Positions 3,908 to 40,602 of a stretch of DNA of 61,917 bases are shown one piece after another. A program made the translations under genes and the position numbers. Numbering within the stretch: the first letter of the stretch is position 1; every line of letters starts with the position of its first letter. The notes below the pieces were generated by a model that was given only the letters and a program-made list of their open reading frames with translations, was not told the origin of the DNA and made no database searches. The stretch comes from a virus (Duplodnaviria; Caudoviricetes): positions 1-61,917 of the IMG/VR virus record IMGVR_UViG_3300014839_000001; one strand, given 5' to 3'.

Positions 3908-4134
3908 CTTACTGATCTCCTGAAAGCGTTGTCAATTCCAGGCAGATAAAGGCAAAAAAGGTCAGCCTGCTTCCTGACAAGAGATATGTCCCGATCTGTT
4001 ATCACGCGGCTCATGCCCTGTGCCTTCTCCTCTCTATTGAAATATAAGCGGGGCGGCATCCTCCACCAGTCATGATAGAAACACCGCCCCGCTATGCGCC
4101 TCCCAGCGCATCGACAGTGCTATCTGCCTCGGCC

Positions 4135-4164
4135 ATTATATCGCGCAAGGGCAAGAGAAGGCAA
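4135..4164 (-). promoter_or_regulatory. sigma70-type promoter
   Basis: TTGCCT-N18-TATAAT. Confidence 0.6.
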
Positions 4165-5414: not shown

Positions 5415-5451
5415 CCCCTTGTATTCATTCACGCGAGGGAAGGAAAGAGAA

Positions 5452-5679
5452 ATGCCCGCCACAAAACGATCCTACGTCATACCGGGCGACACCCTGCCGA
5501 ACGGTGCGCTAGTCGTGGCCGCGAAAAAATGGCTAAACGAGCCAACCGGGCGCATAGTTCTATGTCTCTGGAACAGCGAATACGTGACGTGGAAAACGGA
5601 CGAGAACGGAAACGCGTTTTGGGGTAGTTACTTCGGGGACAATTTCATCGGAGCTGTTAGAGACTTCGAAGACCGCTAG
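5452..5679 (+). CDS. Hypothetical protein
   Basis: GAGGGAAGGAAAG RBS, ATG 5452; EYVTW...WGSYF motif. Confidence 0.7.
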   Translation: MPATKRSYVIPGDTLPNGALVVAAKKWLNEPTGRIVLCLWNSEYVTWKTDENGNAFWGSYFGDNFIGAVRDFEDR

Positions 5680-5731
5680 CTCGTTTGACGCGGGGAGGGT
5701 CACTCCCTCCCGCGCGTGAAATGTCAGCTAG
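5676..5731 (+). repeat. Intergenic long hairpin element, copy 1
   Basis: CTAGCT..TTTGACGCG-GGGAGGG/CCCTCCC-G-CGCGTGAAATG..AGCTAG. Confidence 0.75.
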
Positions 5732-5753
5732 TCAAACAGGGAGGGTTTTGAAA

Positions 5754-5948
5754 ATGTATCGCGTTCATCTATTCACGGAAGCGCCAGAAGAAACGACCGC
5801 CGCGCGTATCGAACGGGACACGGCATACTCGGACGGTTGGAATGATTACCAGCACGGGTACGATCCCCGCGCAGAGCCCGCCAACTATCCCGCGCCATAC
5901 ATCACGGAATATCTAAAAGGTTTCGACGACGCGCACGCCGCTAGTTGA
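5754..5948 (+). CDS. Hypothetical protein
   Basis: AGGGAGGG RBS; AYSDGW..Y and EYLKGF.D repeats. Confidence 0.65.
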   Translation: MYRVHLFTEAPEETTAARIERDTAYSDGWNDYQHGYDPRAEPANYPAPYITEYLKGFDDAHAAS

Positions 5949-5999
5949 AATTTGACGCGGCGAGCCATTACGGGCTCGCACGCGTGAAATGTCAACTAG
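5941..5999 (+). repeat. Intergenic long hairpin element, copy 2
   Basis: CTAGTTGA..TTTGACGCG-GCGAGCC/GGCTCGC-A-CGCGTGAAATG-TCAACTAG. Confidence 0.75.
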
Positions 6000-6019
6000 T
6001 CAACAGGGAGGATTTCAAA

Positions 6020-6145
6020 ATGACGGACAAGCAAGCAAAACAGCTAAGCGACTTGCTGAAAATCTATCTTCATGACTACAACGAAGACAGGTTTATGACA
6101 ATCGACGCGCTAATAAAAGACTTGCGCGAATCGCTCAACGCTTGA
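6020..6145 (+). CDS. Small hypothetical protein (41 aa)
   Basis: AGGGAGG RBS, ATG 6020. Confidence 0.55.
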   Translation: MTDKQAKQLSDLLKIYLHDYNEDRFMTIDALIKDLRESLNA

Positions 6146-6169
6146 CAAGAAAAGAAAGGTAGAGGGAAA

Positions 6170-6391
6170 ATGATCGATAACAAAACGCCAGATATGGAAC
6201 GAGCGATGCAGGGGGGTTATTCCGTCCGAGCTTATTTCATGCCTGCGCTATCAAAGCCGCAATACGTCAAGCTGGAATTAGCGCACGACGAGAACACCCT
6301 CGCGCTATTTGTCGCATCCCCTGAAAACGCGTCGGAAGCATTTCAACACCCTAGCGCGTACTCGGCCGACGTTTGCGCAATTCTCAAATAG
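6170..6391 (+). CDS. Hypothetical protein
   Basis: GAGGGA RBS. Confidence 0.55.
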   Translation: MIDNKTPDMERAMQGGYSVRAYFMPALSKPQYVKLELAHDENTLALFVASPENASEAFQHPSAYSADVCAILK

Positions 6392-6406
6392 GAAGGAACC
6401 GAACCG

Positions 6407-6601
6407 ATGTATAAAATCGTTCGAATGTATTTCAACCCGAACATTTCACGCCGCACCACAATCGAAACAGGGCTAACACTTCAGGAGGCTCAAGCGCACT
6501 GCAACAATCCCGAAACGAGTTCGAGCACTTGCACTAGTTCAACCGGGCGCGCTCGCACGCGCAGACTCGGCCCGTGGTTCGATGGATATGAGAAGACGTG
6601 A
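6407..6601 (+). CDS. Hypothetical protein
   Basis: RBS; GLTLQEAQAHC..PETSS...WFDGY phage-type motif. Confidence 0.65.
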   Translation: MYKIVRMYFNPNISRRTTIETGLTLQEAQAHCNNPETSSSTCTSSTGRARTRRLGPWFDGYEKT

Positions 6602-6712
6602 AAACGCCGAAAGAAACTAAGCGGGATGGAACAAATAGAAAACGTTCAGGAATAAAAAACCCTCGCGCTACTGGCCAACCGTTCAAACCGATTAAAGGGA
6701 GGTTTGTAAACT

Positions 6713-8779
6713 ATGCGAGCGACTGGGCACGACGCACGCACGATTGAAGACGCGATACGCGTTTTGTATTACGGTTCCCGCATGCGCGAGCATGCGCGCG
6801 ACGGATACCCTGAACCGGGAACAAATCAAACGCGGCACGTTCGAGAATATGCCGATGGACGCGTTGACGCACGATTGTCACGCGGCGAGGTTTTCAGCTA
6901 TGGCCCGCATTTCCCGCTGTTTCATTTCATACCCGCTAAAAAACGGCACCCTGCCGTTTTTGTTATCAATGGCGATATATGGCGTGGCCCGCAAAGCCGC
7001 ACAAGTGAACATCAAGCAGACACGCGGCGAATCATCGGACTAACCTTTGCCGCGTCCGTGATTATCCCGTTTTCAGCGCTAGACGGCGCAGGGATCGATT
7101 TAGATTCTATTCGACCGATCGATTCGCGCCCGGACAAGACATGGGCAGAAAAGCATTATGTCAACGCGCCCGATTTTGACGCGTTTGAAACCGCGCTCAA
7201 AATGAAAGAAACCGATGAGCGAAAATCGACCGATTATCGCGGCGAGCCCTGCGCAGAATACGGGACGTGGTCACGTACTTATACCTGGAAAATCGAAGGC
7301 CATACCTTTACTCGTGTTATCAACCGCGCGTGTTACGATTACTCGGACGGCGGTAGCTGGAAATGTTCGGACGATTGGAACAGTCCTGTTTCCGATCATC
7401 GCTATATCAACGGCGGAACAATTGAAAAAGATGCAGACGGCTACTATTTTGAAACGCGGCACCATCGGCTCGGAGATTCGATATTTTCAGCGGTGCGGCA
7501 CGAACGGCTAGCTAGCAGGTTTGCGCAACCGTTTGAATCGAACCGGGACAACGCGCGAGAAACCGTCACGCTGTTTTCATTCGAGGACAGTTATCGCTAC
7601 GATTCAGACGAGGGAAAACCTCATGAAGCAGGCGCGAACGGTTTTTGTATCAATTGCGAGTTACAACTATTTGCTGACGTGACAAAACATCGGCGGGCGC
7701 GATACATATCCTCGTTCGATTCAAACGAGCGGCAACCGCTGTATTTTTTGGCGCAATTACCGCGCGGAAAAATAGAAACCGTCGATGCAGCGATCGACGC
7801 ACTAGCACCGCGCGCCGTTCACGCTGCAATAGCTCGCGAGCGAGAAGTGTTACGGCAGGGTGATATTTTTTACATTCGCACCGATACGGATATGTCCGAG
7901 CTTACCGCGCGAGGATTTATATCCCGCGCACGGCTAACGCAATGGACGCGCGACGCTATCCCGAAACGCGGCGAGGTAGGTTTTCATAAACCGCTCACTG
8001 CAAAACAGCGCCGCGCGATGATGCGCTACGCTCGCAAGCTATACCGCGAACGCCGCGCCGAATTACATACTGCCACGGTTGCAGACTACAATGGTCAGCG
8101 GTTCCCGTTTCAACCGCGCACCGATGCAAACTCCCGCAAACACTGGCGAGACATTCGAAACAGCTACGCGGCCGAATTGACACGCGCGCAAGCCGAATTG
8201 AAAACCGCGCTATGGCGTTTGCCCGCTGCACCATACGGTTACGGCGCTTATCAATCCGGCGCTTATGCGCAAACCGATCATGAAACATTCGAACGCAAAC
8301 AAGCGGCACGCGTGCGGAAATGGAAACGACATATCTACTATGCGCGCCAATCACTAGCACGAGTACAAAAGGACGGTGCGCACGATTCGCTCGGTTTTAG
8401 AAACGCGCGACACGCACGGGACATATATCGAAAACGTGAGGGATTCGCACTAGCGCAATGGCGAGACGCGTTATTGTCCGCACGTTTGAAATTCGAGCCG
8501 TTCGCACTAGCGCATAGCGAATTCAGACAAAACGAGCGCGAGCGAGTGCGCAATGCGTTAGCTATCTACGGCACCGCGCATAGCGCGACTGAAATAGTCC
8601 GCGTGCGCGGCGGTGCTACATACGCGCGCGGGATAGCCCGGCATGTTCCCGATCTTGAGCGCGGGCGCAATGGCGGGCGCGATCATTCTCCGCTAACGTT
8701 AGGGGATGGAGAAACGTTTTATCTAGCGGTGCGCAACACGGTACCGCGTCAGAATCGGCCGCACGTCCGAAACGCGTAA
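6713..8779 (+). CDS. Large hypothetical protein with RQGD motif and C-terminal His cluster
   Basis: 688-aa ORF, AGGGAGGT RBS, LRQGDIF, H..TE, RH, DH..L.L. Confidence 0.8.
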   Translation: MRATGHDARTIEDAIRVLYYGSRMREHARDGYPEPGTNQTRHVREYADGRVDARLSRGEVFSYGPHFPLFHFIPAKKRHPAVFVINGDIWRGPQSRTSEHQADTRRIIGLTFAASVIIPFSALDGAGIDLDSIRPIDSRPDKTWAEKHYVNAPDFDAFETALKMKETDERKSTDYRGEPCAEYGTWSRTYTWKIEGHTFTRVINRACYDYSDGGSWKCSDDWNSPVSDHRYINGGTIEKDADGYYFETRHHRLGDSIFSAVRHERLASRFAQPFESNRDNARETVTLFSFEDSYRYDSDEGKPHEAGANGFCINCELQLFADVTKHRRARYISSFDSNERQPLYFLAQLPRGKIETVDAAIDALAPRAVHAAIAREREVLRQGDIFYIRTDTDMSELTARGFISRARLTQWTRDAIPKRGEVGFHKPLTAKQRRAMMRYARKLYRERRAELHTATVADYNGQRFPFQPRTDANSRKHWRDIRNSYAAELTRAQAELKTALWRLPAAPYGYGAYQSGAYAQTDHETFERKQAARVRKWKRHIYYARQSLARVQKDGAHDSLGFRNARHARDIYRKREGFALAQWRDALLSARLKFEPFALAHSEFRQNERERVRNALAIYGTAHSATEIVRVRGGATYARGIARHVPDLERGRNGGRDHSPLTLGDGETFYLAVRNTVPRQNRPHVRNA

Positions 8780-8802
8780 CAAACACGAGGGAGAAACAAA
8801 AC

Positions 8803-9012
8803 ATGAAAACCGAAACACTGAAACAAACAGCCAACACGCAAACAGCCGCTCCCGCATGCGCTACGTGCGGCGATACGCTCGCACCGTCTGGCGCATGCCT
8901 CAACGCGGGCGCATGCCTGAACGCGGACACGGACGCGGCACGACGCGGACGAGGGGATAGCCAAAAATTCGCTATCCCGTCTGCATGGAATGCGCGGGGT
9001 ATGGTCGATTGA
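8803..9012 (+). CDS. Small Cys-containing (Zn-ribbon-like) protein
   Basis: GAGGGAG RBS; CATC...C...C. Confidence 0.55.
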   Translation: MKTETLKQTANTQTAAPACATCGDTLAPSGACLNAGACLNADTDAARRGRGDSQKFAIPSAWNARGMVD

Positions 9013-9153
9013 CAAACCGCGCCAGATAGTCAGTACCACTGCGAGCCCGCCATTGTGCGGGCTCGTGGTATGCCTGCGAGCTATCGAGCGGTGCGCGCTC
9101 GGATCGATCGGGCGCGTATCGCTGGAATGCTAGCAACCGGAAACGAGGGAGCT

Positions 9154-9375
9154 ATGAAACGAGCCGATGAGCCCGTGCCGAACATGTTCGCTAGCGGCGC
9201 TGAGCGCTCTCCTAACGTGCCCGCGCTCGAATCGCGGCCAACCGTACCGGCCGAGCGTATCTCCGAGCTACAAGCCGCGATGATGCGCGCGCAGCTCACG
9301 CAGGCACGCGCCCGAGCAGGCTACCGATCGCATTCTCAGCGGTATAAGCCGGAAGGGGATTCTAAGCGATTCTAA
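9154..9375 (+). CDS. Hypothetical protein
   Basis: GAGGGAG RBS before ATG 9154. Confidence 0.45.
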   Translation: MKRADEPVPNMFASGAERSPNVPALESRPTVPAERISELQAAMMRAQLTQARARAGYRSHSQRYKPEGDSKRF

Positions 9376-9756
9376 ACAATTGAAATTCGAGCCGTGCTAG
9401 TACCTTCGGCCGCGTTCGCTACGCGTTAGCGTCGTTTTCAGTGGCGTTTGCGTTGATTCTGGCGGGATTGTCAAACGAGGGAGGGAGAACTAACGAGCGG
9501 AAACAGTGAAAACCTAGCGTTTGACCGTCGTTGGTAGCAGTTTCGCCGCTGCATGCGTTCGCGCGCATTCTTGAAATCGCTCGAAAACGGCCGCGGTGTT
9601 GCCTGCGCTGGCAACTATGCCGACGACGACCGAAAATCGTGTTACCACGCTAACAGAATTTCAATACAGTTACCGAATGCCCTTTACGTTGTCATTGTTG
9701 ACAACTTTCCAAAGTGAAATACCACAACACTAAATTGAAATGAAAACTGCCCATCC

Positions 9757-9788
9757 CTGACACTGGCAAAATCGGTGAAAATTTTGGG
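9757..9788. repeat. 32-bp direct repeat, copy 1
   Basis: CTGACACTGGCAAAATCGGTGAAAATTTTGGG is identical to 10870-10901. Confidence 0.9.
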
Positions 9789-9816
9789 CCGATGGAAAAC
9801 GAAAGGAAACAAAACA

Positions 9817-10014
9817 ATGGAGTCACACACTCAAAGAAACAAGCAGGCCACGAGGGAAGCGCTTTACGACGATCCGTTTGTCAGTGACGCTGACTACGGC
9901 ACGCTAGTCGAACAAGCGATCGAGGACGACGAGACGGAAGCGCTACGGCTTGAGCGCGAAGAGTATCGCCATGATGAAGAGCTGGAAGCTGAAGGGCTCG
10001 ATTATTTGTCATAA
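9817..10014 (+). CDS. Small acidic protein
   Basis: AAAGGA RBS; strongly D/E-rich. Confidence 0.6.
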   Translation: MESHTQRNKQATREALYDDPFVSDADYGTLVEQAIEDDETEALRLEREEYRHDEELEAEGLDYLS

Positions 10015-10048
10015 CGCGCTGAGAGCATTTTCACAAACATAGCCAGTC

Positions 10049-10081
10049 AAGAGAGCGCCCGCATTGTCGGGCGTTTTCTTT
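10049..10081. terminator. Bidirectional terminator at the strand convergence
   Basis: AAGAGAGCGCCCG-CATTGT-CGGGCGTTTTCTTT. Confidence 0.7.
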
Positions 10082-10124
10082 CGGCGTTCAAAATGCTCGG
10101 CGTTGAAATTGCCCTACCTGCCGT

Positions 10125-10451
10125 TCAAAACAGATGCCCACAAAAAGGGCATTTCCTTTTGCGGCCAGTAGCCCGCTGCCCTGCCGGGTGCGGCTTATCC
10201 CAAACTTCCAAGTTCTTTTGTCGATTATCGTCCCGCTGCCCATTGACGTGATGCACATTTTCATTTTCACGTAGCGCCCGACCAAGCTTAGCGGTCATTA
10301 CTAACCGATGCTCTACTTCCCAAACTCCCGGTTCGACTTGACAATTCACATAACCGAGTCGCGTAACCGTTCGCGGCATCGCCGCGATCTCCTCCATTGT
10401 CCAGCTACGAGAATACGCAGGCTTGAACTGTCTAGCACTGCTCTGTCCCAT
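10125..10451 (-). CDS. HNH endonuclease
   Basis: EHRLVM...LGR.L...ENVHHVNG.RDDNR..NLEVW; C-terminal CPFC. Confidence 0.88.
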   Translation of the reverse strand: MGQSSARQFKPAYSRSWTMEEIAAMPRTVTRLGYVNCQVEPGVWEVEHRLVMTAKLGRALRENENVHHVNGQRDDNRQKNLEVWDKPHPAGQRATGRKRKCPFCGHLF

Positions 10452-10494
10452 GCCGTTAGAATAGCACACAGGCGTTCTAAGCGGTACTCTAACG

Positions 10495-10521
10495 AAAAGG
10501 CCGGGGAATGTCCCGGCCTTT
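10495..10521 (-). terminator. Intrinsic terminator
   Basis: AAAGGCCGGG-ACATTC-CCCGGCCTTTT. Confidence 0.75.
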
Positions 10522-10627
10522 CTGTTTCTGCGCGTCAGCGTGGCGTTCAGTTAGCTCAGCGTTCGTTTTACCCCTCCTACCGTTACCCCCGGTACCTATT
10601 TCCTCCCTCGTTGAAATCTACCGGCCT

Positions 10628-10656
10628 AGCGTATCACACAAATAAGTGAATTTCAA
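10628..10656 (-). promoter_or_regulatory. Promoter of a ~125-nt ORF-less transcript
   Basis: TTGAAA-N17-TACGCT with extended TG. Confidence 0.55.
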
Positions 10657-10687
10657 CTCTTTTTTTGTGGTATGATCCTGGGGTTTG

Positions 10688-10827
10688 AAATAGAACAGCC
10701 CCCTCTTGCGAAGGGGCTGCTCGTTGCCTGTGCTCACATCGTCGCCACGACGGAGCCGACAGGCGTGCCCGCGCGAGGGAATTGCGCGAGCTACGGCGCG
10801 TCCCGCCGCATGGGACGCATTCCGTAC
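10688..10827 (-). ncRNA. Candidate small RNA (three hairpins plus terminator)
   Basis: Promoter upstream; stems GCGTCCC/GGGACGC, GCTCGCGC/GCGCGGGC, GCCTGT/ACAGGC; terminator GAGCAGCCCCT/GGGGGCTGTTC-TATTT. Confidence 0.65.
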
Positions 10828-10833
10828 CGAGCC

Positions 10834-10862
10834 AGTGTAGCACCGGGCCAAGAAGCTGTCCA
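10834..10862 (-). promoter_or_regulatory. Promoter of the candidate sRNA
   Basis: TGGACA-N17-TACACT with extended TG. Confidence 0.65.
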
Positions 10863-10869
10863 GTTCTCT

Positions 10870-10901
10870 CTGACACTGGCAAAATCGGTGAAAATTTTGG
10901 G
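10870..10901. repeat. 32-bp direct repeat, copy 2
   Basis: Identical to 9757-9788. Confidence 0.9.
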
Positions 10902-10993
10902 GCTCGGTCATCGAAGGTGGTGCCCATCCCAAAAAAACCGTATCATCGTGATCCATAGCCCAAGACCGATTGCCGCAAAAATGTATTGCCACA

Positions 10994-11182
10994 TCAGAGT
11001 TTCCTCGCTTCGGCTGCTCGCACTTGCCGCTTGCTCACTGAAACGACATAGCCCCAAGCGTCACGGATTGTCACTACCCGCGCACCGATAGCGAGAACCA
11101 CGCTCGGGCGAAACGTTGCGTCGTAGGCAACTCGATCGCCCACCTTGATGACTCGGCCGTTTTTCAATTTCATCTGTTTCAT
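10994..11182 (-). CDS. Small basic beta-rich (SH3/KOW-like) protein
   Basis: GGAGGGA RBS; IKVGDRV motif; follows the tmRNA. Confidence 0.55.
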   Translation of the reverse strand: MKQMKLKNGRVIKVGDRVAYDATFRPSVVLAIGARVVTIRDAWGYVVSVSKRQVRAAEARKL

Positions 11183-11207
11183 CGTTCCCTCCTTCGGCGT
11201 TTGAAAT

Positions 11208-11556
11208 TGGAGTAGGGGGGAATCGAACCCCCGTCCGCGAACGCTATTGCCAATCACTTTCCTAACAGCTTTTTTGGGGGCGTGTGTGCCCTCCACCATC
11301 TTGTCTTTCCAAGATGCCAGTTCAGTCTTTCCCGAACCCGCCAGCTCTGTCCGAGCAGGATCAGCGATTGGTGCTGGTTACGCTGAAACCAGGGCCGACT
11401 CGGAGAGGAACGCTTCAATTTCAACGATCCCCCGAGCTGCCTCGTTTGCTACTTCGTCTTTCGCATTCACATTGTCCAATTCAGGACTTGATGCGGTAGG
11501 CCGCAACCCGCTGTAAGTAACTGCCACATTACGCCACGTCGAAACCGATCTACCCC
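11208..11556 (-). ncRNA. ssrA: tmRNA
   Basis: 5' GGGGTAGATCGGTTTCGAC; 3' GACGGGGGTTCGATTCCCCCCTACTCCA; G3.U70 pair; helix 2 pairings (ACAGC/GCTGT, CAGTTACTT/AAGTGATTG); tag frame 11464-11378; CCA not encoded. Confidence 0.93.
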
Positions 11557-11564
11557 GAGTGACA

Positions 11565-11686
11565 ATTGAGAGACGAACCGAGAGGAGTCGAACCTCTCGC
11601 CCGGCGTCAGCCTCGAACCCTCTGAATGGGCGTCCATGGACTCGGCCTTAGCATCCGGCGTCTCAGCCTTGTGCTCGTCTCTCAAT
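11565..11686 (-). ncRNA. tRNA-like RNA of unknown class
   Basis: 14-bp terminal stem stacked on T-arm CGAGAGG-TTCGACT-CCTCTCG; not a canonical cloverleaf. Confidence 0.65.
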
Positions 11687-11701
11687 CTTGCTGCCATCGT
11701 A

Positions 11702-12475
11702 CTACTTGCTCTTCTTCTTGGCAACTGCTTTCTTCGGCTTCGCGGTGCCACGCTTAGCGGCCTTCTTAGCCGCTACGGGCTCGGCCTTGCTCTTGCTGCC
11801 CTTCGGCCGTCCACGCTTCGCAGCGGGCTTGCTGGCCGCTTTCTTCGCCTTGCTGACTGTGTTCTTCCTGTTGGTGCTCGCCTCGTGCTGGCCGGTGCCA
11901 GTAACGAAGTCGAATTTCACGCGGGAGATGTTCCAGCGCAAGAGAGCCTCGGCCTCAGCCTTCGTGTACTTCTTGCCGGTTGTAGGGCTCGTCTTGAAAA
12001 GCTGCTGCGCGTCGGGCTTCAGTAGCTCGAAGCACTTGTCAACGTTGCCCCTGAACTTGCGGACAGCCTTGAGAATGGTCTGCCGGTTGCCCCGCTGTCC
12101 ACCACTCCACTCGGCCTTCCAGTCGATCGATTTGTCATCGATCAGATTACGACCGCTCGGGCCGTCTGCCTTCGGCTTTGTCACCTTGACAGCTTTCTTG
12201 ACGTTCTTGCTTCCAGCCGGTCGTCCGCGCTTCTTGGCAACCTTCTCCGCCTTCGCGGGAGCGCTCTTCTTCGCAGTCTTCTTCGCGGACGACTTCTTGC
12301 TAACTGACTTCGCAGGCGCGGCTGACTTCTTCGCGGCACCCTTCTTCTTGGCAGGAGCCGCCTTCTCGCTCTTGCCGTGGTTCTTGATTGCGTCCTGAAG
12401 CTCGGACGCGCTCATTGCCTTGTAGCCCTCGATGCCAAGCTGCTTCGCCTTGGCCCGGATTTCAAGTGTTCCCAT
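11702..12475 (-). CDS. Histone H1-like Lys/Ala-rich DNA-binding protein
   Basis: Many PAKK/AKK repeats, AT-hook-like KRGRP motifs, N-terminal Rho-N-like segment; GGAGGT RBS. Confidence 0.8.
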   Translation of the reverse strand: MGTLEIRAKAKQLGIEGYKAMSASELQDAIKNHGKSEKAAPAKKKGAAKKSAAPAKSVSKKSSAKKTAKKSAPAKAEKVAKKRGRPAGSKNVKKAVKVTKPKADGPSGRNLIDDKSIDWKAEWSGGQRGNRQTILKAVRKFRGNVDKCFELLKPDAQQLFKTSPTTGKKYTKAEAEALLRWNISRVKFDFVTGTGQHEASTNRKNTVSKAKKAASKPAAKRGRPKGSKSKAEPVAAKKAAKRGTAKPKKAVAKKKSK

Positions 12476-13048: not shown

Positions 13049-13330
13049 TCATTGCGCCCTCCTCGGTCTGCCTACTTTCATTGTCTTGAAAATTCCCTCG
13101 ATCTCCTTGACTTGCGCGGGGGAGTATAGCCGAAAACTCAGCTCTCCCAATTGTACTCGTTTCGCTTGTGGAATTCGACCCGCTCTTTCCAACCGCTTGA
13201 TCCACGAAATGTCTTTGCGCACAACACGCGCAAGTTCCCCGATTGTCAAGTAGTCGCTGAACCGCTCGGGCTTGATGTGGCTGGTGCGCGGAGTACGCGA
13301 AGGAAAGTGCGGGCCGATTCGCTTTTTCAC
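13049..13330 (-). CDS. MerR-like HTH DNA-binding protein
   Basis: YLTIGELARVV...IKRLERAGRIP...RLYS. Confidence 0.75.
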   Translation of the reverse strand: MKKRIGPHFPSRTPRTSHIKPERFSDYLTIGELARVVRKDISWIKRLERAGRIPQAKRVQLGELSFRLYSPAQVKEIEGIFKTMKVGRPRRAQ

Positions 13331-35990: not shown

Positions 35991-36347
35991 TCATTTTTCA
36001 CTTCTAAGAACTTCGGTGGAAACAATATGCCTCTTGCCAACCCAAGGGGTGTAAACCGCGTCATCACTGACAACAGAAACGTAAATAAAGTCCTCTTCCA
36101 CGTACTTTATTTCAACTACGCACATTCCGTCGTTGTCGGTAAACGCAGTCACAGTGTCAAGGTGCATTGTCACCTTTGACCTACTCTTCTTAGCTTCAAT
36201 CAAGCAGAATTCCCACGAACTATATTGCCTTTTCAAAGTCCCTATTTGCATTGGCGGTACAACAGTGCTTGCTGCGTCAGAAGGTTTCGGCGGGGCTTCA
36301 GTCGGAGCTGCTGCTTCTTCAGGGATTCTTTCTTTTTCAGGCGTCAT
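35991..36347 (-). CDS. Hypothetical protein
   Basis: GAGGAG RBS. Confidence 0.6.
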   Translation of the reverse strand: MTPEKERIPEEAAAPTEAPPKPSDAASTVVPPMQIGTLKRQYSSWEFCLIEAKKSRSKVTMHLDTVTAFTDNDGMCVVEIKYVEEDFIYVSVVSDDAVYTPWVGKRHIVSTEVLRSEK

Positions 36348-36509
36348 TGAAAACTCCTCTTTTCTGTGGGTAACTATCTACTTGGAGAAGCGGCGAAGAG
36401 TGCTGATTCTATCACCGTTTCTTGCATTCTGTCTAGCGGGTGAGAGCTTTGCTCAGTGACGGGCCTGAACGCCACTCTCACCCGCGCATCTGCCCGCGAG
36501 GGCAGAAAC

Positions 36510-36800
36510 CTACGCCTTCGTGTCCGTGAGCTTGCTGACCAGTCCTGTAGCGCCTGTGGGCTTCCACAAGTTACGGTACAGAACTTGCGCTGCAAGATAG
36601 ACGGCAATCAACGAAGTTGCCCAGTTGTGGAGATCAAAATTTCCGCTCACCCAAGTTGTCAAAGCGGAAGCTACAATCGCAATTGCAAATGCGATAACAG
36701 CTTTGACATTCGCGCTCCACTTGACCTGTGTTAGAACGCTAATCAGGAATGGAAGCAGGGCTCCCACAAGAACTGATAGCTGTGCAAGGTTACTTGTCAT
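36510..36800 (-). CDS. Holin-like membrane protein
   Basis: Three hydrophobic segments, LWKPTG motif; lysis region. Confidence 0.7.
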   Translation of the reverse strand: MTSNLAQLSVLVGALLPFLISVLTQVKWSANVKAVIAFAIAIVASALTTWVSGNFDLHNWATSLIAVYLAAQVLYRNLWKPTGATGLVSKLTDTKA

Positions 36801-36837
36801 TTCGCTTCTCCTTCGTCTGTATTGTTACCAAATAAAC

Positions 36838-37422
36838 TCACCAAGGTTTGCATTCCCAAGGCGACCAATCACGACCCGACGCGACGAAGTAGCGATACGC
36901 CGCCACTGCCTGACCTAGCGCTGTGTGTGAATGCCCGTATCGTGAACGCTCACCGCTGCCCATTTGAAATTCGCCCAAATATTGCCCGTTTTGGGCATAA
37001 ACGAAGGGAACGGGACTGCCTCCTTCGCATTTTGCTACTTCCCAAGCGTCATCTCCGTACCTACCAAAAACGTAATGAATGGCAGTGTAAGGGTCTTTGT
37101 ACTTCTTAGCGATTTTCCACTCTTCTGCCGCAAGAGATTTCCAGTGTTTTTTTACATAGCGGAGATACGGGATTGAATCTGATTTCAGGTATTTTTTGGA
37201 ACCCCTAGTACGAATGCTTGGGTACTCCCAAGAAACAGGTGAACGCGCGTCTTGCCACGCCCATACCTTGTTTCGTGTTTGCAGAATGTCGTTCTTGATT
37301 CTTTGCTGCTCCGACCGTACTGCTGTTGTGGTCGGTTGTGTTCTTGCTTGAGCTACCTCGGTTTGGCTGCCAACCAAAGTGAAAACAAAGATGGCAGCCA
37401 TTAGTACGGTGAGCCTGCGCAT
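36838..37422 (-). CDS. Secreted lysozyme-like / Rpf-like lytic transglycosylase
   Basis: Signal peptide ending AQA; VAKCEGG, NGQYLG.FQM, WSPW.C. Confidence 0.7.
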   Translation of the reverse strand: MRRLTVLMAAIFVFTLVGSQTEVAQARTQPTTTAVRSEQQRIKNDILQTRNKVWAWQDARSPVSWEYPSIRTRGSKKYLKSDSIPYLRYVKKHWKSLAAEEWKIAKKYKDPYTAIHYVFGRYGDDAWEVAKCEGGSPVPFVYAQNGQYLGEFQMGSGERSRYGHSHTALGQAVAAYRYFVASGRDWSPWECKPW

Positions 37423-37517
37423 GAAAAACCTCCAATTGTCGCTTACAAGTCGCCGCTAACCGTCAGCGGTGTAGCTTGTTTTGTATTTGGTGCCTCCTTT
37501 TTTGATTTCAATGAAAT

Positions 37518-37670
37518 TCAGACCCATTGAGCGGCTGAAAGAAATGCAACACCAAGCGCCATAAGTTCGAACCCTCCTAACGACTCGATTGTGACGCCAA
37601 GAACAACAAGAATGAAAATTACAGTAGAAACAAATGCCAAGATACGTGGCAAGCTCAAGTTCAAGCTCAT
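37518..37670 (-). CDS. 50-aa two-TM membrane protein (not in ORF track)
   Basis: MSLNLSLPRILAFVSTVIFILVVLGVTIESLGGFELMALGVAFLSAAQWV; GGAGGG RBS. Confidence 0.6.
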   Translation of the reverse strand: MSLNLSLPRILAFVSTVIFILVVLGVTIESLGGFELMALGVAFLSAAQWV

Positions 37671-37672
37671 AG

Positions 37673-38341
37673 TTACCCTCCTGACGGAACGGTTACAGTT
37701 ACGGCCGGTGTCTGGTCAGGCGTGACCGACACAGCGGGTGTACGACTGAGCGACCAGGCCATGACAACAAAAGCGAGGAGCGCCAGAACAAACCCACCTA
37801 CCCCGATCCACACGTTGACATTCTGACGACTCTCCGTGCGAGTGTCCGTAGCGCCTCTTGAGTGGCTTTCTGCCCCATTGATACGCTCTTTCAGGTCATC
37901 GACCTTTTCAGACAGAGAGCGGTTTCTGGACTCGAACATATCAGTAAGCTTGGTGAGCGTTTCCGCCGTCGCTTTCTCTGATTTGTCGATCGCCAACATG
38001 TTCGATTTGTTCTGTTCCGCTGCCGCTTCCTTCTGCGCGGCTAGAGCGGCGTCGAGTGCGATCTTGCTGTCTCTCGATTCACGCTCGGCGCGGGAGTCCC
38101 GCTCCTTGAACTGCAAGGCGATGGAGGCGAAGTGCTCCTCGGTCAGCTCGCGTAGATGGGTAACTTCCTTGGTGACCTCCGTAGGCACCCGGTTGACTGT
38201 CTCATCAAGGAGAGCTGTAGCCCGATCCATCCCGGCCAGTCGCTCTGCAAACACCTTGACCGATGCTTCGGTTAGAGCGCGTTCGGCCTCAAACCGCCGG
38301 TCAAGAGAATCAGTTTGTTTGACCATTTCTTCAGGACTCAT
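37673..38341 (-). CDS. Coiled-coil membrane protein (lysis region)
   Basis: Coiled coil plus C-terminal TM. Confidence 0.65.
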   Translation of the reverse strand: MSPEEMVKQTDSLDRRFEAERALTEASVKVFAERLAGMDRATALLDETVNRVPTEVTKEVTHLRELTEEHFASIALQFKERDSRAERESRDSKIALDAALAAQKEAAAEQNKSNMLAIDKSEKATAETLTKLTDMFESRNRSLSEKVDDLKERINGAESHSRGATDTRTESRQNVNVWIGVGGFVLALLAFVVMAWSLSRTPAVSVTPDQTPAVTVTVPSGG

Positions 38342-38354
38342 TTACCACTCCTTT

Positions 38355-38942
38355 TCAACTTGCTGCCGGGACTTCAGCGGTTGACAAGTAAGGGCAATGC
38401 CCTTCAAGGTTGTCCACAACCTTTGTCAACGTATCTGTGGCTTTGACTAATGCTGATGATTGCGAAATTGCAGTAGTTTCACGCGCCAACAACCGTTCCA
38501 ACGCTTCGGTAGCAGCTTGCACTGCTTTTGCGGTAGCAAGGTCGCGTTTTTTTGCTCCGCTATCATGCGCCTTGAGTATTTTCAAAAGACCCGTCATGTT
38601 GGGCAGTTTTTCTGCGGTCGCAAGCCGTTCTCGAAGTTCGACCAACAGGGCATCGCGCTCATCGAGCTTTTGCCTGTACTCTGCTGAAACTACCTGAGAT
38701 ACACCAAGACGGGCCTCTTGCGCACTGGCCAAATGCTTTACCGCAATATACGCATCATGTTCTGCGTCTGCTGCTGTTTTCCATTTCACTCCATAGAAAA
38801 CGCCAACGAGTGAACCAATTGACAAAAATAGTCCTATAACTAACCCGAGTATGCCCAGTTTGTCACGCAAAGTCAACGCCGCTACAAAGCCAGGAAAAGC
38901 TGAAGCTGCAACTGCTGGAACGAATAACGGTGCGGGAATCAC
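38355..38942 (-). CDS. Membrane/coiled-coil protein (lysis region)
   Basis: N-terminal TMs. Confidence 0.6.
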   Translation of the reverse strand: MIPAPLFVPAVAASAFPGFVAALTLRDKLGILGLVIGLFLSIGSLVGVFYGVKWKTAADAEHDAYIAVKHLASAQEARLGVSQVVSAEYRQKLDERDALLVELRERLATAEKLPNMTGLLKILKAHDSGAKKRDLATAKAVQAATEALERLLARETTAISQSSALVKATDTLTKVVDNLEGHCPYLSTAEVPAAS

Positions 38943-38954
38943 ATTCTCTCCTTG

Positions 38955-39668
38955 TTATTTCGTGCAACGCACAAATTCAGTGACATCTGAAAGTTTGCGT
39001 TCCCGTTGTTGTACTTCGCCGCCGTTTGAGTCGTTTCCTGCCGATGTGTTCCCTTCGCGTGCAAAGAAAGTCACGCCGGGCTCGATCCATTTTTCAAACA
39101 TTCCGATGTGCTTCCCGCCCCAGTAAATGACAAAATCGCCGGGTCGAACTTCGCTTCTCGAAACGGTAATCAGATTGTTGCGCCTTGATCGTGCATCGTT
39201 GAGCACATACGGAACATAGGCGTAGTGAAAATGAAACCCAACCTTGCTTGCGCACCAACTGAGGAACATAGCGCACCACGGGCCAATCAGTTTGTACCAA
39301 ATAGAGAATTTCACAATGTTCGAGTTAGCTGGGGACTCCTTGATTCCAGTCTGACTTATTGCGACCTGAAGCATTTTCATGTGCTTGCTAATCGCCTTCG
39401 TCGCCTTCTTGACCCGAGACTTTGCCCGAGCCCGCATTGCTAGGTTGGGCTTCTTCTTGCCGGACAGGTAAGCAAGAATGAGATCGCCAGCCTGATTGTT
39501 GACAGTGCGATAGCCAAGAGCATATTTGGCGTCTTTGACGGCGCGAGCTGTCTCAGGGCCATAAACGCCGTCAACCGCGCCCTTCAGGTACTTCTTGGTT
39601 TTCAACCAGTTTTGAAGAACCTTGACATTGTGGCCTTCCATGTACGGGGTTGTCAGTCTAAGATCCAT
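38955..39668 (-). CDS. Endolysin: peptidoglycan-binding domain + CHAP peptidase
   Basis: V..LQ..L...DGVYGPET..AV; PWCAMFLSWC, PGD, HIG, EGNT. Confidence 0.88.
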   Translation of the reverse strand: MDLRLTTPYMEGHNVKVLQNWLKTKKYLKGAVDGVYGPETARAVKDAKYALGYRTVNNQAGDLILAYLSGKKKPNLAMRARAKSRVKKATKAISKHMKMLQVAISQTGIKESPANSNIVKFSIWYKLIGPWCAMFLSWCASKVGFHFHYAYVPYVLNDARSRRNNLITVSRSEVRPGDFVIYWGGKHIGMFEKWIEPGVTFFAREGNTSAGNDSNGGEVQQRERKLSDVTEFVRCTK

Positions 39669-39828
39669 TTTCCGCCTCCTTTTCAAGCCGATCATTTTCA
39701 ATGTCGGCAATTATCCGTCTTGCTTGTTGCAGTTCTTCTTTGGTTTTTGCCAGCTCGTTTTCAAGAAGTCTATTTTTCACAGTTTGTTCACCGATGATGA
39801 GAATCAAATCCTGTTTTTCCAATTCCAT
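39658..39828 (-). CDS. 56-aa coiled-coil protein (not in ORF track)
   Basis: AAGGAG RBS; MELEKQDLILIIGEQ... Confidence 0.55.
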   Translation of the reverse strand: MELEKQDLILIIGEQTVKNRLLENELAKTKEELQQARRIIADIENDRLEKEAENGS

Positions 39829-39846
39829 TTCCGTCTCCTTTGTCAG

Positions 39847-40602
39847 CTAGGCGAGTTCGTAGATGATCTGGCCCCAAGCGCTCTTGGCCCCAGGGTTAGT
39901 CCATACAGGTGTCACGGTGGTATAGGCTGGGTCGCAAGTAATACTGGCGCTAGAGGCGGCAACGTAGACACTGGTTGGGATGTAGTGAGTATCGTTATCC
40001 AGACCCGCTCCAGCAGCGAAGGCATTACGAGCGCTAGAGTTACCAAGCGCGGGGGTAGAGAACGATACGGTCGTAGCGTTACTTGTCCCGCTGATTTGGT
40101 AATTCACTATTACCGTCTTCGTTCCAACCCGCAAGTAAGAACACGCGACCGTCCGCCCCGACGTAGCCCATCCCGTAATCGTCGCCGGGGTATAGGGCGT
40201 CCAGGCCATCGTGTTGTTCATGATTCCGACCCAAACTCGCGCTCCATCTGTACCAACATTCCATTCGTATTGATTGGTCGTAGTGTTGAGAATTACAAGA
40301 CCGTAAGGGGCTTTTCCAGCCGCAATTGCGTCACGCGCTGTTGTAGTGAAAGTTCCACCGATAACCCCGCCCAACCCGCGAATAATTTCATCGACTCGCA
40401 GCATGCCGGTAAGGCGTGCCTCGCCCGCGCCGTAACGAAGAAGCTGAAGCCCAGTCTCGCCCAACCGCAATGTTCCTACATCGACGGTCTGTGCGAAGTT
40501 TGACAAGTCAGCCCACGCGTCTTGCATCGCAAGCAAGTCGCCCGCATACAGACGGCCAAGGGGCGCAATCCCTGTGCTGTCAAACTCTTTAATTCTGGAC
40601 AT
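39847..40602 (-). CDS. Tail fibre-like protein
   Basis: Follows baseplate genes; TT..RDAI...GL..NTTT..YEW and WT.YTP...Y.RVG motifs. Confidence 0.65.
   Translation of the reverse strand: MSRIKEFDSTGIAPLGRLYAGDLLAMQDAWADLSNFAQTVDVGTLRLGETGLQLLRYGAGEARLTGMLRVDEIIRGLGGVIGGTFTTTARDAIAAGKAPYGLVILNTTTNQYEWNVGTDGARVWVGIMNNTMAWTPYTPATITGWATSGRTVACSYLRVGTKTVIVNYQISGTSNATTVSFSTPALGNSSARNAFAAGAGLDNDTHYIPTSVYVAASSASITCDPAYTTVTPVWTNPGAKSAWGQIIYELA

Follow-up and report, generated by a model that had tools for sequence, protein, structure and literature searches.

Several antisense RNAs of phages, among them P22 sar, P1/P7 c4 and lambda OOP, regulate genes by masking a ribosome-binding site (RBS), and phage T4 encodes a protein repressor, RegA, which damps the translation of many early mRNAs at their initiation regions. 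RsaE/RoxS belongs to the small RNAs (sRNAs) of the C-rich-loop type. SprX (RsaOR), an sRNA encoded by Staphylococcus aureus converting phages, uses a C-rich UCCC loop to block ribosome loading at the spoVG RBS (PMC4005690), and the 6C sRNA of Actinobacteria binds its targets through C-rich loops (PMC6486639). Here we analyzed a putative RNA unit on the minus strand, at positions 10688-10862 of the IMG/VR virus record IMGVR_UViG_3300014839_000001 (Caudoviricetes), whose entire 61,917-bp sequence was the window of this study. A preliminary description had proposed this unit to be a stand-alone sRNA with a loop antisense to the RBSs of plus-strand genes, which would shut off an early operon or host mRNAs. 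Our data support a plausible, though unproven, C-rich-loop sRNA; that it uses an exposed UCCC-containing loop to occlude the AGGGA-type RBSs of a plus-strand gene block is a tentative reading, to which we assign a probability of roughly 0.28.

Like P22 sar, P1/P7 c4 and lambda OOP, the unit would be a small hairpin-rich phage RNA that regulates phage genes at or near the RBS. However, those RNAs are antisense to, or processed beside, one target with long complementarity, whereas the unit would act in trans, through 6-7 nt, on a group of related sites at distances of 0.7-5.4 kb. It would resemble T4 RegA as one phage product acting on many early mRNAs, but the agent would be an RNA using a private Shine-Dalgarno (SD) flavor. 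With intrinsic terminators and structured 3' untranslated regions it shares a last hairpin with a U-rich tail and a position behind genes of the same strand; unlike a plain terminator, it has three more strong hairpins, at whose foot lies a promoter-like site. SprX is likewise phage-borne, with several hairpins and an accessible UCCC loop that pairs with the SD without an obligatory change of mRNA stability, but it is a proven regulator with a host operon, yabJ-spoVG, as the target (PMC4005690), whereas here the phage's own genes are proposed as targets from sequence alone. SprX and the unit have no sequence or structure homology, as no Rfam family reached E <= 10 on the minus strand of the unit. 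The 6C sRNA pairs the C-rich loops of its hairpins with purine-rich stretches of mRNAs through short G-C-rich contacts, a mode that would suit a rigid GC-rich scaffold; however, 6C has several C-rich loops and phylum-wide conservation (PMC6486639), while the unit has one such loop and is an orphan that matches no Rfam family.

Fold, signals and coding potential of the RNA unit

The promoter, hairpins and terminator reported in the preliminary description were all recovered on the minus strand. A promoter scan identified a sigma-70-like candidate at 10834..10862 (minus), which consists of TGGACA (10862-10857), a 17-nt spacer and TACACT (10839-10834), matches 9/12 positions and carries a TG before the -10 hexamer (extended -10). 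This site ends 6 nt before hairpin 1, and by its spacing the putative transcript start would lie at about 10828/10827, at the foot of that hairpin. The RNA from 10830 to 10688 (minus) was predicted to fold into four hairpins with a minimum free energy (MFE) of -85.9 kcal/mol. Hairpin 1 (10792..10826) has 13 pairs, a 2-nt internal loop and the terminal loop AUGCGGC (-19.3 kcal/mol). Hairpin 2 (10767..10791) is an 8-bp GC-rich stem that presents the 9-nt loop AAUUCCCUC (10783-10775), the proposed seed and the complement of GAGGGAA(UU). Hairpin 3 (10726..10764) folds at -22.9 kcal/mol, its plus-strand mirror at -18.1, and hairpin 4 with its tail UUCUAUUU (10689..10722, stem 10722-10693) forms an intrinsic-terminator-like 3' end at -24.8 kcal/mol versus -15.7 for the mirror. 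The terminator scan listed 10716-10700 on the minus strand with the tail GCTGTTCTAT, a GC-rich stem-loop followed by a U-rich tract.

The fold was far more stable than expected from composition. Two hundred dinucleotide shuffles of the RNA averaged -60.1 ± 4.1 kcal/mol (z = -6.35), and 0/200 folded as well as the native sequence. When the whole genome was scanned on both strands in 143-nt windows with 20-nt steps (6178 folds), the unit ranked 1 by raw MFE and 2 after regression on GC content (-4.6 standard deviations, sd); it is a GC island, with 66% GC, whereas the genome has 51% and the spacer that follows the unit 49%. The minus-strand fold was favored by 15 kcal/mol over that of the plus strand (-85.9 versus -70.7), 5/50 of its pairs were G-U, mainly in hairpins 3 and 4, and the plus strand in a 183-nt context gave a z of just -1.88. 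For hairpins 1 and 2 the two strands were equal in folding. A plus-strand energy of -80.0 for the mirrored structure was an artefact of counting C-A as pairs and was set aside.

Three other segments stood out in the folding scan, 4021-4163 (minus, -4.8 sd), 8981-9143 (plus, -4.0) and 7901-8063 (minus, -3.9), and none of them carried a C-rich loop. The first lies in an ORF-poor control region at 3.8-5.4 kb, and 8981-9143 is situated between a gene ending at 9012 and another starting at 9154. On the plus strand at 10668-10676, a good extended -10 element, TGgTATGAT, was read by eye, although it was absent from the promoter scan list. A start from this element would give an RNA antisense to the whole unit, and no plus-strand terminator follows.

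Five open reading frames (ORFs) of 44-139 aa overlap the unit. Their codon-usage log-odds, trained on 39 long genes, were -0.07 to -0.18 per codon, in the range of antisense or spurious frames (-0.12 ± 0.10, n = 203), whereas real genes scored +0.22 ± 0.10 (n = 67). A Pfam search with the three longest of these ORFs returned nothing below E = 0.2. These codon scores and the Pfam result uphold the earlier view that the unit contains no credible ORF. Overall, the locus is probably a real structured RNA element of the minus strand.

Proposed pairing of the hairpin 2 loop with ribosome-binding sites

The hairpin 2 loop is C-rich and exposed: AAUUCCCUC contains the UCCC motif, its bases are unpaired with probabilities of 0.89-1.0, and its opening costs 0.07 kcal/mol. 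The preliminary description had stressed a 10-mer reaching from this loop, the complement of which, CGCGAGGGAA, lies in the RBS region of the first plus-strand gene. That complement is present at 5432-5441 (plus) and elsewhere only at the RNA locus itself. As an argument, however, the 10-mer failed, because the number of perfect 10-mer complementarities between the RNA and the genome was at chance (18 versus 16.0 ± 5.4 for shuffled RNAs) and the last three of its ten bases belong to the stem, from which they are freed at a cost of 9.99 kcal/mol. Since the stem bases are so costly to open, the usable seed is the 7-nt UUCCCUC, with a pairing of 6-7 nt.

As previously described, CGAGGGA or GAGGGAA precedes the ATGs at 5452, 6170, 8803 and 9154, all on the plus strand. 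GAGGGAA at 5435..5441, in the RBS region of the first gene of the plus-strand block (ATG 5452), was the best predicted target of the loop at -10.9 kcal/mol, and the copy at 6162..6168, just before ATG 6170, reached -10.8 kcal/mol; CGAGGGA at 8786..8792 (ATG 8803) and at 9144..9150 (ATG 9154) gave -10.2 and -10.4 kcal/mol, respectively. Duplex energies were then compared between the 9-nt loop and 83 start regions (-25 to +6). The ten best targets averaged -10.0 kcal/mol and included the starts at 5452, 6170, 9154, 11182, 18509 and 21047. Plus-block starts were bound at a mean of -8.19 kcal/mol versus -5.85 for minus-strand starts (Mann-Whitney p = 0.008). When the loop was permuted 399 times, only 2.3% of the permutations separated the two groups as well as the native loop. 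Contiguous complements of at least 6 nt were found in 4/9 plus-block but 7/74 minus-strand start regions. Across the genome the two motifs showed no enrichment (GAGGGAA, 12 versus 7.6 expected; CGAGGGA, 10 versus 7.4).

The nine genes of the plus-strand block share an RBS flavor, (G/C)AGGGA(G/A). Motifs were counted in the 22 nt before the start, for nine curated plus-block starts and 74 minus-strand starts taken from a crude gene caller. AGGGA occurred in 7/9 plus-block and 8/74 minus-strand leaders (Fisher p = 4.6e-5) and GAGGGA in 4/9 and 3/74 (p = 0.002), whereas AGGAG was present in 0/9 and 27/74 (p = 0.028). On the plus strand of the block, seven of the 13 AGGGA copies fell inside the start windows, whose combined share of the block is 4.3% (p = 3.7e-7). 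A similar bias was observed in the relative G001, where an opposite-strand block of small genes (36300-40600) carried AGGGA at 4/9 starts versus 3/84 elsewhere (p = 0.0013, on crude gene calls). The AGGGA flavor thus appears, on this comparison, to be a trait of the lineage; the RNA could be a later add-on exploiting it, or the match could be coincidental. Seen in two related phages, the two-class RBS split may be a more robust finding than the RNA.

From the features observed directly, namely the sequence signals, the fold, the lack of coding potential, the accessibility of the loop and the complementarity bias, we infer a mechanism in which transcription of the unit, the ends of its RNA, in vivo pairing and any translational effect are predictions. 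A noncoding RNA of about 139 nt would be made on the minus strand, from about 10828 to about 10690, by its own sigma-70-type promoter, and read-through from the upstream genes, the transfer-messenger RNA (tmRNA) gene, ORF62 and ORF28, would probably be a second source. The RNA would end at its own terminator hairpin, and three rigid GC-rich hairpins would give it stability. Apart from the hairpin 2 loop, no long unpaired stretch has the potential to regulate. This loop would pair over 6-7 nt with the AGGGA-type SD sequences of the small early-type genes at 5452-10014, and would thereby keep 30S subunits from binding and lower the translation of the block, in the way that SprX acts at the spoVG RBS (PMC4005690). 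Late genes, with mostly AGGAG-type sites, would be less affected.

Phage genome, neighboring genes and relatives

The IMG/VR record is 61,917 bp long, has direct terminal repeats and a GC content of 51%, and is rated 100% complete; near-identical DNA occurs in peat and permafrost metagenomes. Its large terminase gene (1040-2755, minus) shows at most about 26% identity over most of its length to deposited phages, which places it far from cultured phages, and only three viral contigs were related through this gene, at 67%, 67% and 46% identity. A blastn search with the DNA of 10400-11600 found no match in cultured phages. Most genes lie on the minus strand, and the plus-strand block at 5452-10014 consists of small ORFans and a 688-aa protein, for which no relative was found; a neighboring 257-aa protein had no relative in metagenome contigs. 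An ORF-poor stretch of 1.5 kb with TTGACA/TGTCA palindromes precedes the block. The label of early operon, applied earlier to these genes, is reasonable, though unproven. The plus-strand genes stop at 10014, and a minus-strand HNH endonuclease gene (10469-10125) lies between them and the RNA unit, 220 nt beyond the latter.

On the minus strand the order is tmRNA gene, ORF62, ORF28, a 35-nt repeat, the promoter-like site with the RNA unit, a 165-nt spacer, a bidirectional terminator and the HNH gene. The tmRNA gene (11205..11556, minus), which heads this gene string, matched Rfam RF00023 over its full length (57.6 bits, E = 1.4e-21), although ARAGORN did not call it. Its 3' end has no encoded CCA, and its tag frame, with a resume point picked by eye, comprises 28 aa ending in ALVSA. 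The tmRNA family was found in 0/3 of the related viral contigs, and a 29-nt sequence taken from the 3' end of the tmRNA for a host search occurred in 0 of 185,579 species genomes. ORF62 (11182-10994, minus) carries AAGGAGGGAACG before its ATG, a strong AAGGAGGG site, and has a codon score of +0.25; among 5.8 billion proteins its only match was itself. The start of ORF28 (10994-10908, minus; codon score +0.11) overlaps the ORF62 stop (TGATG), and its product is a hydrophobic 28-aa peptide (MWQYIFAAIGLGLWITMIRFFWDGHHLR) that may be a small membrane protein. A type I toxin-antitoxin pair, with ORF28 as the toxin and the RNA as the antitoxin, was considered and rejected; such a pair calls for antisense overlap or for at least 18 nt of complementarity in trans, whereas the two do not overlap and no complementarity of at least 9 nt to 10908-11010 was present in the lists of 10-mers and longer, with only the 6-nt GCGAGG seen by eye. 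The HNH protein had no close relative in viral contigs.

The terminator scan detected a strong bidirectional terminator at 10496-10521 (both strands) but no terminator-like site between the ORF28 stop (10908) and the RNA unit. The unit has promoter-like and terminator-like sites of its own, as its description as stand-alone implied, but no terminator separates it from the upstream tmRNA-ORF62-ORF28 string; read-through would also yield the hairpin stack as a 3' end, and its stand-alone status was therefore not established.

The 35-nt repeat (10867..10901) closely precedes the -35 hexamer and covers about -40 to -74 relative to the putative start. It recurs in direct orientation at 9754-9788 with 97% identity (one mismatch), and between the two copies lies a 1.08-kb segment with ORF65, the HNH gene, the spacer, and the RNA unit including its promoter. 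The repeat could be a duplicated regulatory site, or the two copies could mark the edges of a cassette that was inserted; the repeat core had 0 matches in viral contigs. The DNA of 10600-11600 gave only chance matches of 12-15 nt in the three relatives. The neighborhood of the unit appears, by such comparisons, to be an accessory, orphan module without a counterpart in relatives.

Several further elements were observed, some of them close to the unit. The 8-mer GTTGAAAT occurs at 23 sites of the genome versus 3.1 expected (0/100 shuffles reached 23), on both strands and often between genes, and forms an inverted pair just below the unit, at 10610-10617 (plus) and 10650-10657 (minus); it may be a variant of the promoter -35 element or a protein-binding site. 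A hairpin at 10592-10627 (minus), 150 nt downstream of the unit, presents at its tip CGAGGGAG, the complement of the hairpin 2 loop, and this tip could be a decoy, a partner site or a chance match. SD-like CGAGGGAGG stretches that are not followed by a start codon were seen in this hairpin (10592-10627, minus) and at 9471-9487 (plus).

Homologs of the unit were sought in several ways. At the gathering threshold, an Rfam scan of the whole genome detected the tmRNA only. A scan of 10300-11800 with Rfam 15 at E <= 10 gave no family on the minus strand of the unit, including the 6C, RsaE and Spr families; the sole match inside the unit, to a trypanosomatid snoRNA model on the plus strand, reached 18.3 bits versus a gathering score of 50 and was a chance match. 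Exact words from hairpin 2 gave 0 matches in viral contigs as a 25-mer, 4 in viral contigs as a 17-mer and 7 in metagenome contigs as a 20-mer, several of them inside long ORFs. One of the 17-mer chance matches (L011, 7350-7530) is located in a viral contig unrelated to the phage, immediately behind a pair of tRNA-like sequences. At the convergence point of transcription in the relative G001, about 70 nt long, no structured unit was found, and the fetched parts of G001 and of a second relative, G002, below the helicase gene gave no Rfam match at E <= 0.1. Hairpin loops bearing UCCCU number seven in G001 and two in G002, none of them at the equivalent position and strand. A CRISPR-repeat, ToxI-type repeat or retron RNA was also considered and rejected: the four hairpins are mutually unlike, and no reverse-transcriptase gene or repeat array was seen nearby.

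Transcript data were the assembled contigs of one RNA run. These metatranscriptome contigs (X8) covered parts of 9113-10607 and 11028-11202 and none of 10608-11009, which carries no weight either way for the unit. One short X8 contig with adapter flanks spans 10410-10532 and ends just past the bidirectional terminator at 10496-10521. This could mark a native RNA end there; the contigs do not show strand.

Competing explanations and biological meaning

Several results weigh against an RNA that occludes AGGGA-type RBSs. Pairing is limited to 6-7 nt, and the sole genomic site that complements the loop over its full length, 13091-13100 (minus), falls within a gene and not at a start. As for overall affinity to the start regions, 13% of 299 loop permutations and 22% of 300 random 9-mers did as well as the loop; the preliminary description had itself proposed a shuffled loop as the yardstick, and by this yardstick the overall affinity was no better than that of shuffled loops. 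At -8 kcal/mol or better, the canonical anti-SD 9-mer bound 43/83 start regions and the loop 15/83. Moreover, hairpin 2 had been chosen in the preliminary description for its loop, which introduces a selection effect; three hairpin loops in the phage genome contain UCCCU. The AGGGA comparison was made post hoc, its nine plus-block leaders are not all independent because some of them are duplicated cassettes (repeat D6), and G001 shows the AGGGA bias with no detectable copy of the RNA, so that the bias is independent of the RNA. Promoter-like sites with 9/12 matches are common (22 per 20 kb versus 12.4 ± 3.4 in shuffles), although at the shuffle rate of 12.4 per 40,000 strand-positions one would be expected within ±10 nt of the hairpin 1 foot with a chance of about 0.6%. 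The U-tract of hairpin 4 (UUCUAUUU) is interrupted. A covariance model of the unit, run against the phage and its three relatives (4 records), returned only the self-match; none of the 11 hairpin 2 word matches extended past the query word, their flanks being unrelated; and the DNA runs X4, X5 and X6 were identical over the locus, without variants. With neither homologs nor variants to provide covariation, the structure is a prediction from thermodynamics. In the anti-SD interpretation put forward earlier, the accessible loop and the preference for the plus block held up, while the 10-mer and the overall affinity did not.

An explanation about equally likely as the anti-SD function is that the hairpins together form the structured 3' terminus of a tmRNA-ORF62-ORF28 transcript and a strand-boundary element, which stops transcription and shields the 3' end from exonucleases, the C-rich loop being incidental and nothing acting in trans. 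With no terminator-like site between ORF28 and the unit, upstream transcripts must enter it; hairpin 4 is terminator-like, the stronger bidirectional terminator follows at 10496-10521, and the unit is near the point where the transcription directions converge, although the minus-strand HNH gene intervenes. The chance-level affinity of the loop for starts and the lack of conservation of the unit would fit as well. However, one terminator hairpin would be enough for such a role, and three extra hairpins (-14 to -23 kcal/mol), in the most extreme fold of the genome, exceed its ordinary 3' ends. An extended -10 promoter-like site exactly at the foot of hairpin 1 and a loop whose match to the plus-block flavor is bettered by only 2.3% of permutations would also be unexpected.

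It is unlikely that the locus has no RNA function, being instead the remnant of a GC-rich palindrome or an element that works as DNA (for example in recombination or protein binding), or that its plus strand is the relevant one. The absence of conservation and of transcript evidence, the equal stability of hairpins 1 and 2 on both strands, and the plus-strand extended -10 at 10668-10676, which could drive antisense transcription, point in this direction. Against it, folding favors the minus strand by 15 kcal/mol, all 5 wobble pairs there being G-U, the plus-strand fold is unexceptional (z of only -1.88), and the promoter-like site and U-tail both belong to the minus strand, no plus-strand terminator following.

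Somewhat less likely still, the unit is a true trans-acting sRNA that is directed at host mRNAs or at another partner, perhaps a protein, perhaps the GA-rich hairpin that lies 150 nt downstream. The features of an RNA gene (the fold, the promoter-like site and the missing coding signal) would agree with this, the module is an accessory one that relatives lack, a typical property of moron genes directed at the host, and the same-strand hairpin at 10592-10627 presents CGAGGGAG, the loop complement. But a single extra complementary site is within chance given the CGAGGGA counts above, and the tmRNA-derived pattern matched 0 genomes. Least likely, and improbable in our view, is a cis-acting leader or mobile-cassette part for the HNH gene, whereby the promoter would drive HNH through two leaky terminators and the hairpins would set read-through or RNA stability: the HNH gene is on the same strand 220 nt beyond the unit, and promoter, RNA, spacer and gene all lie within the repeat-bracketed 1.08-kb segment, the whole of it orphan, but two terminator-like hairpins stand between promoter and gene, no alternative antiterminator fold was found (none was sought), no riboswitch or leader family matched in Rfam, and a -10-like TATTCT, seen by eye only, lies shortly before the HNH start.

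The proposal that the loop occludes the AGGGA-type RBSs has a far-reaching form, in which a private SD flavor, (G/C)AGGGA(G/A), marks the early-type genes and one accessory sRNA displaying its exact complement shuts off the whole block; this we regard as a long shot. If true, the RNA would be a counterpart of the T4 RegA protein, and the phage would time its own genes at translation initiation by a class-specific RBS flavor rather than by gene-by-gene antisense, a simple and portable early-to-late switch. A lytic-type environmental phage would then join the short list of those with a proven trans-acting sRNA. The split in G001 would in that case represent a conserved two-class translation code of the lineage, into which different regulators could plug. 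Independent of the RNA, the two-flavor RBS split is the more solid by-product of this analysis.

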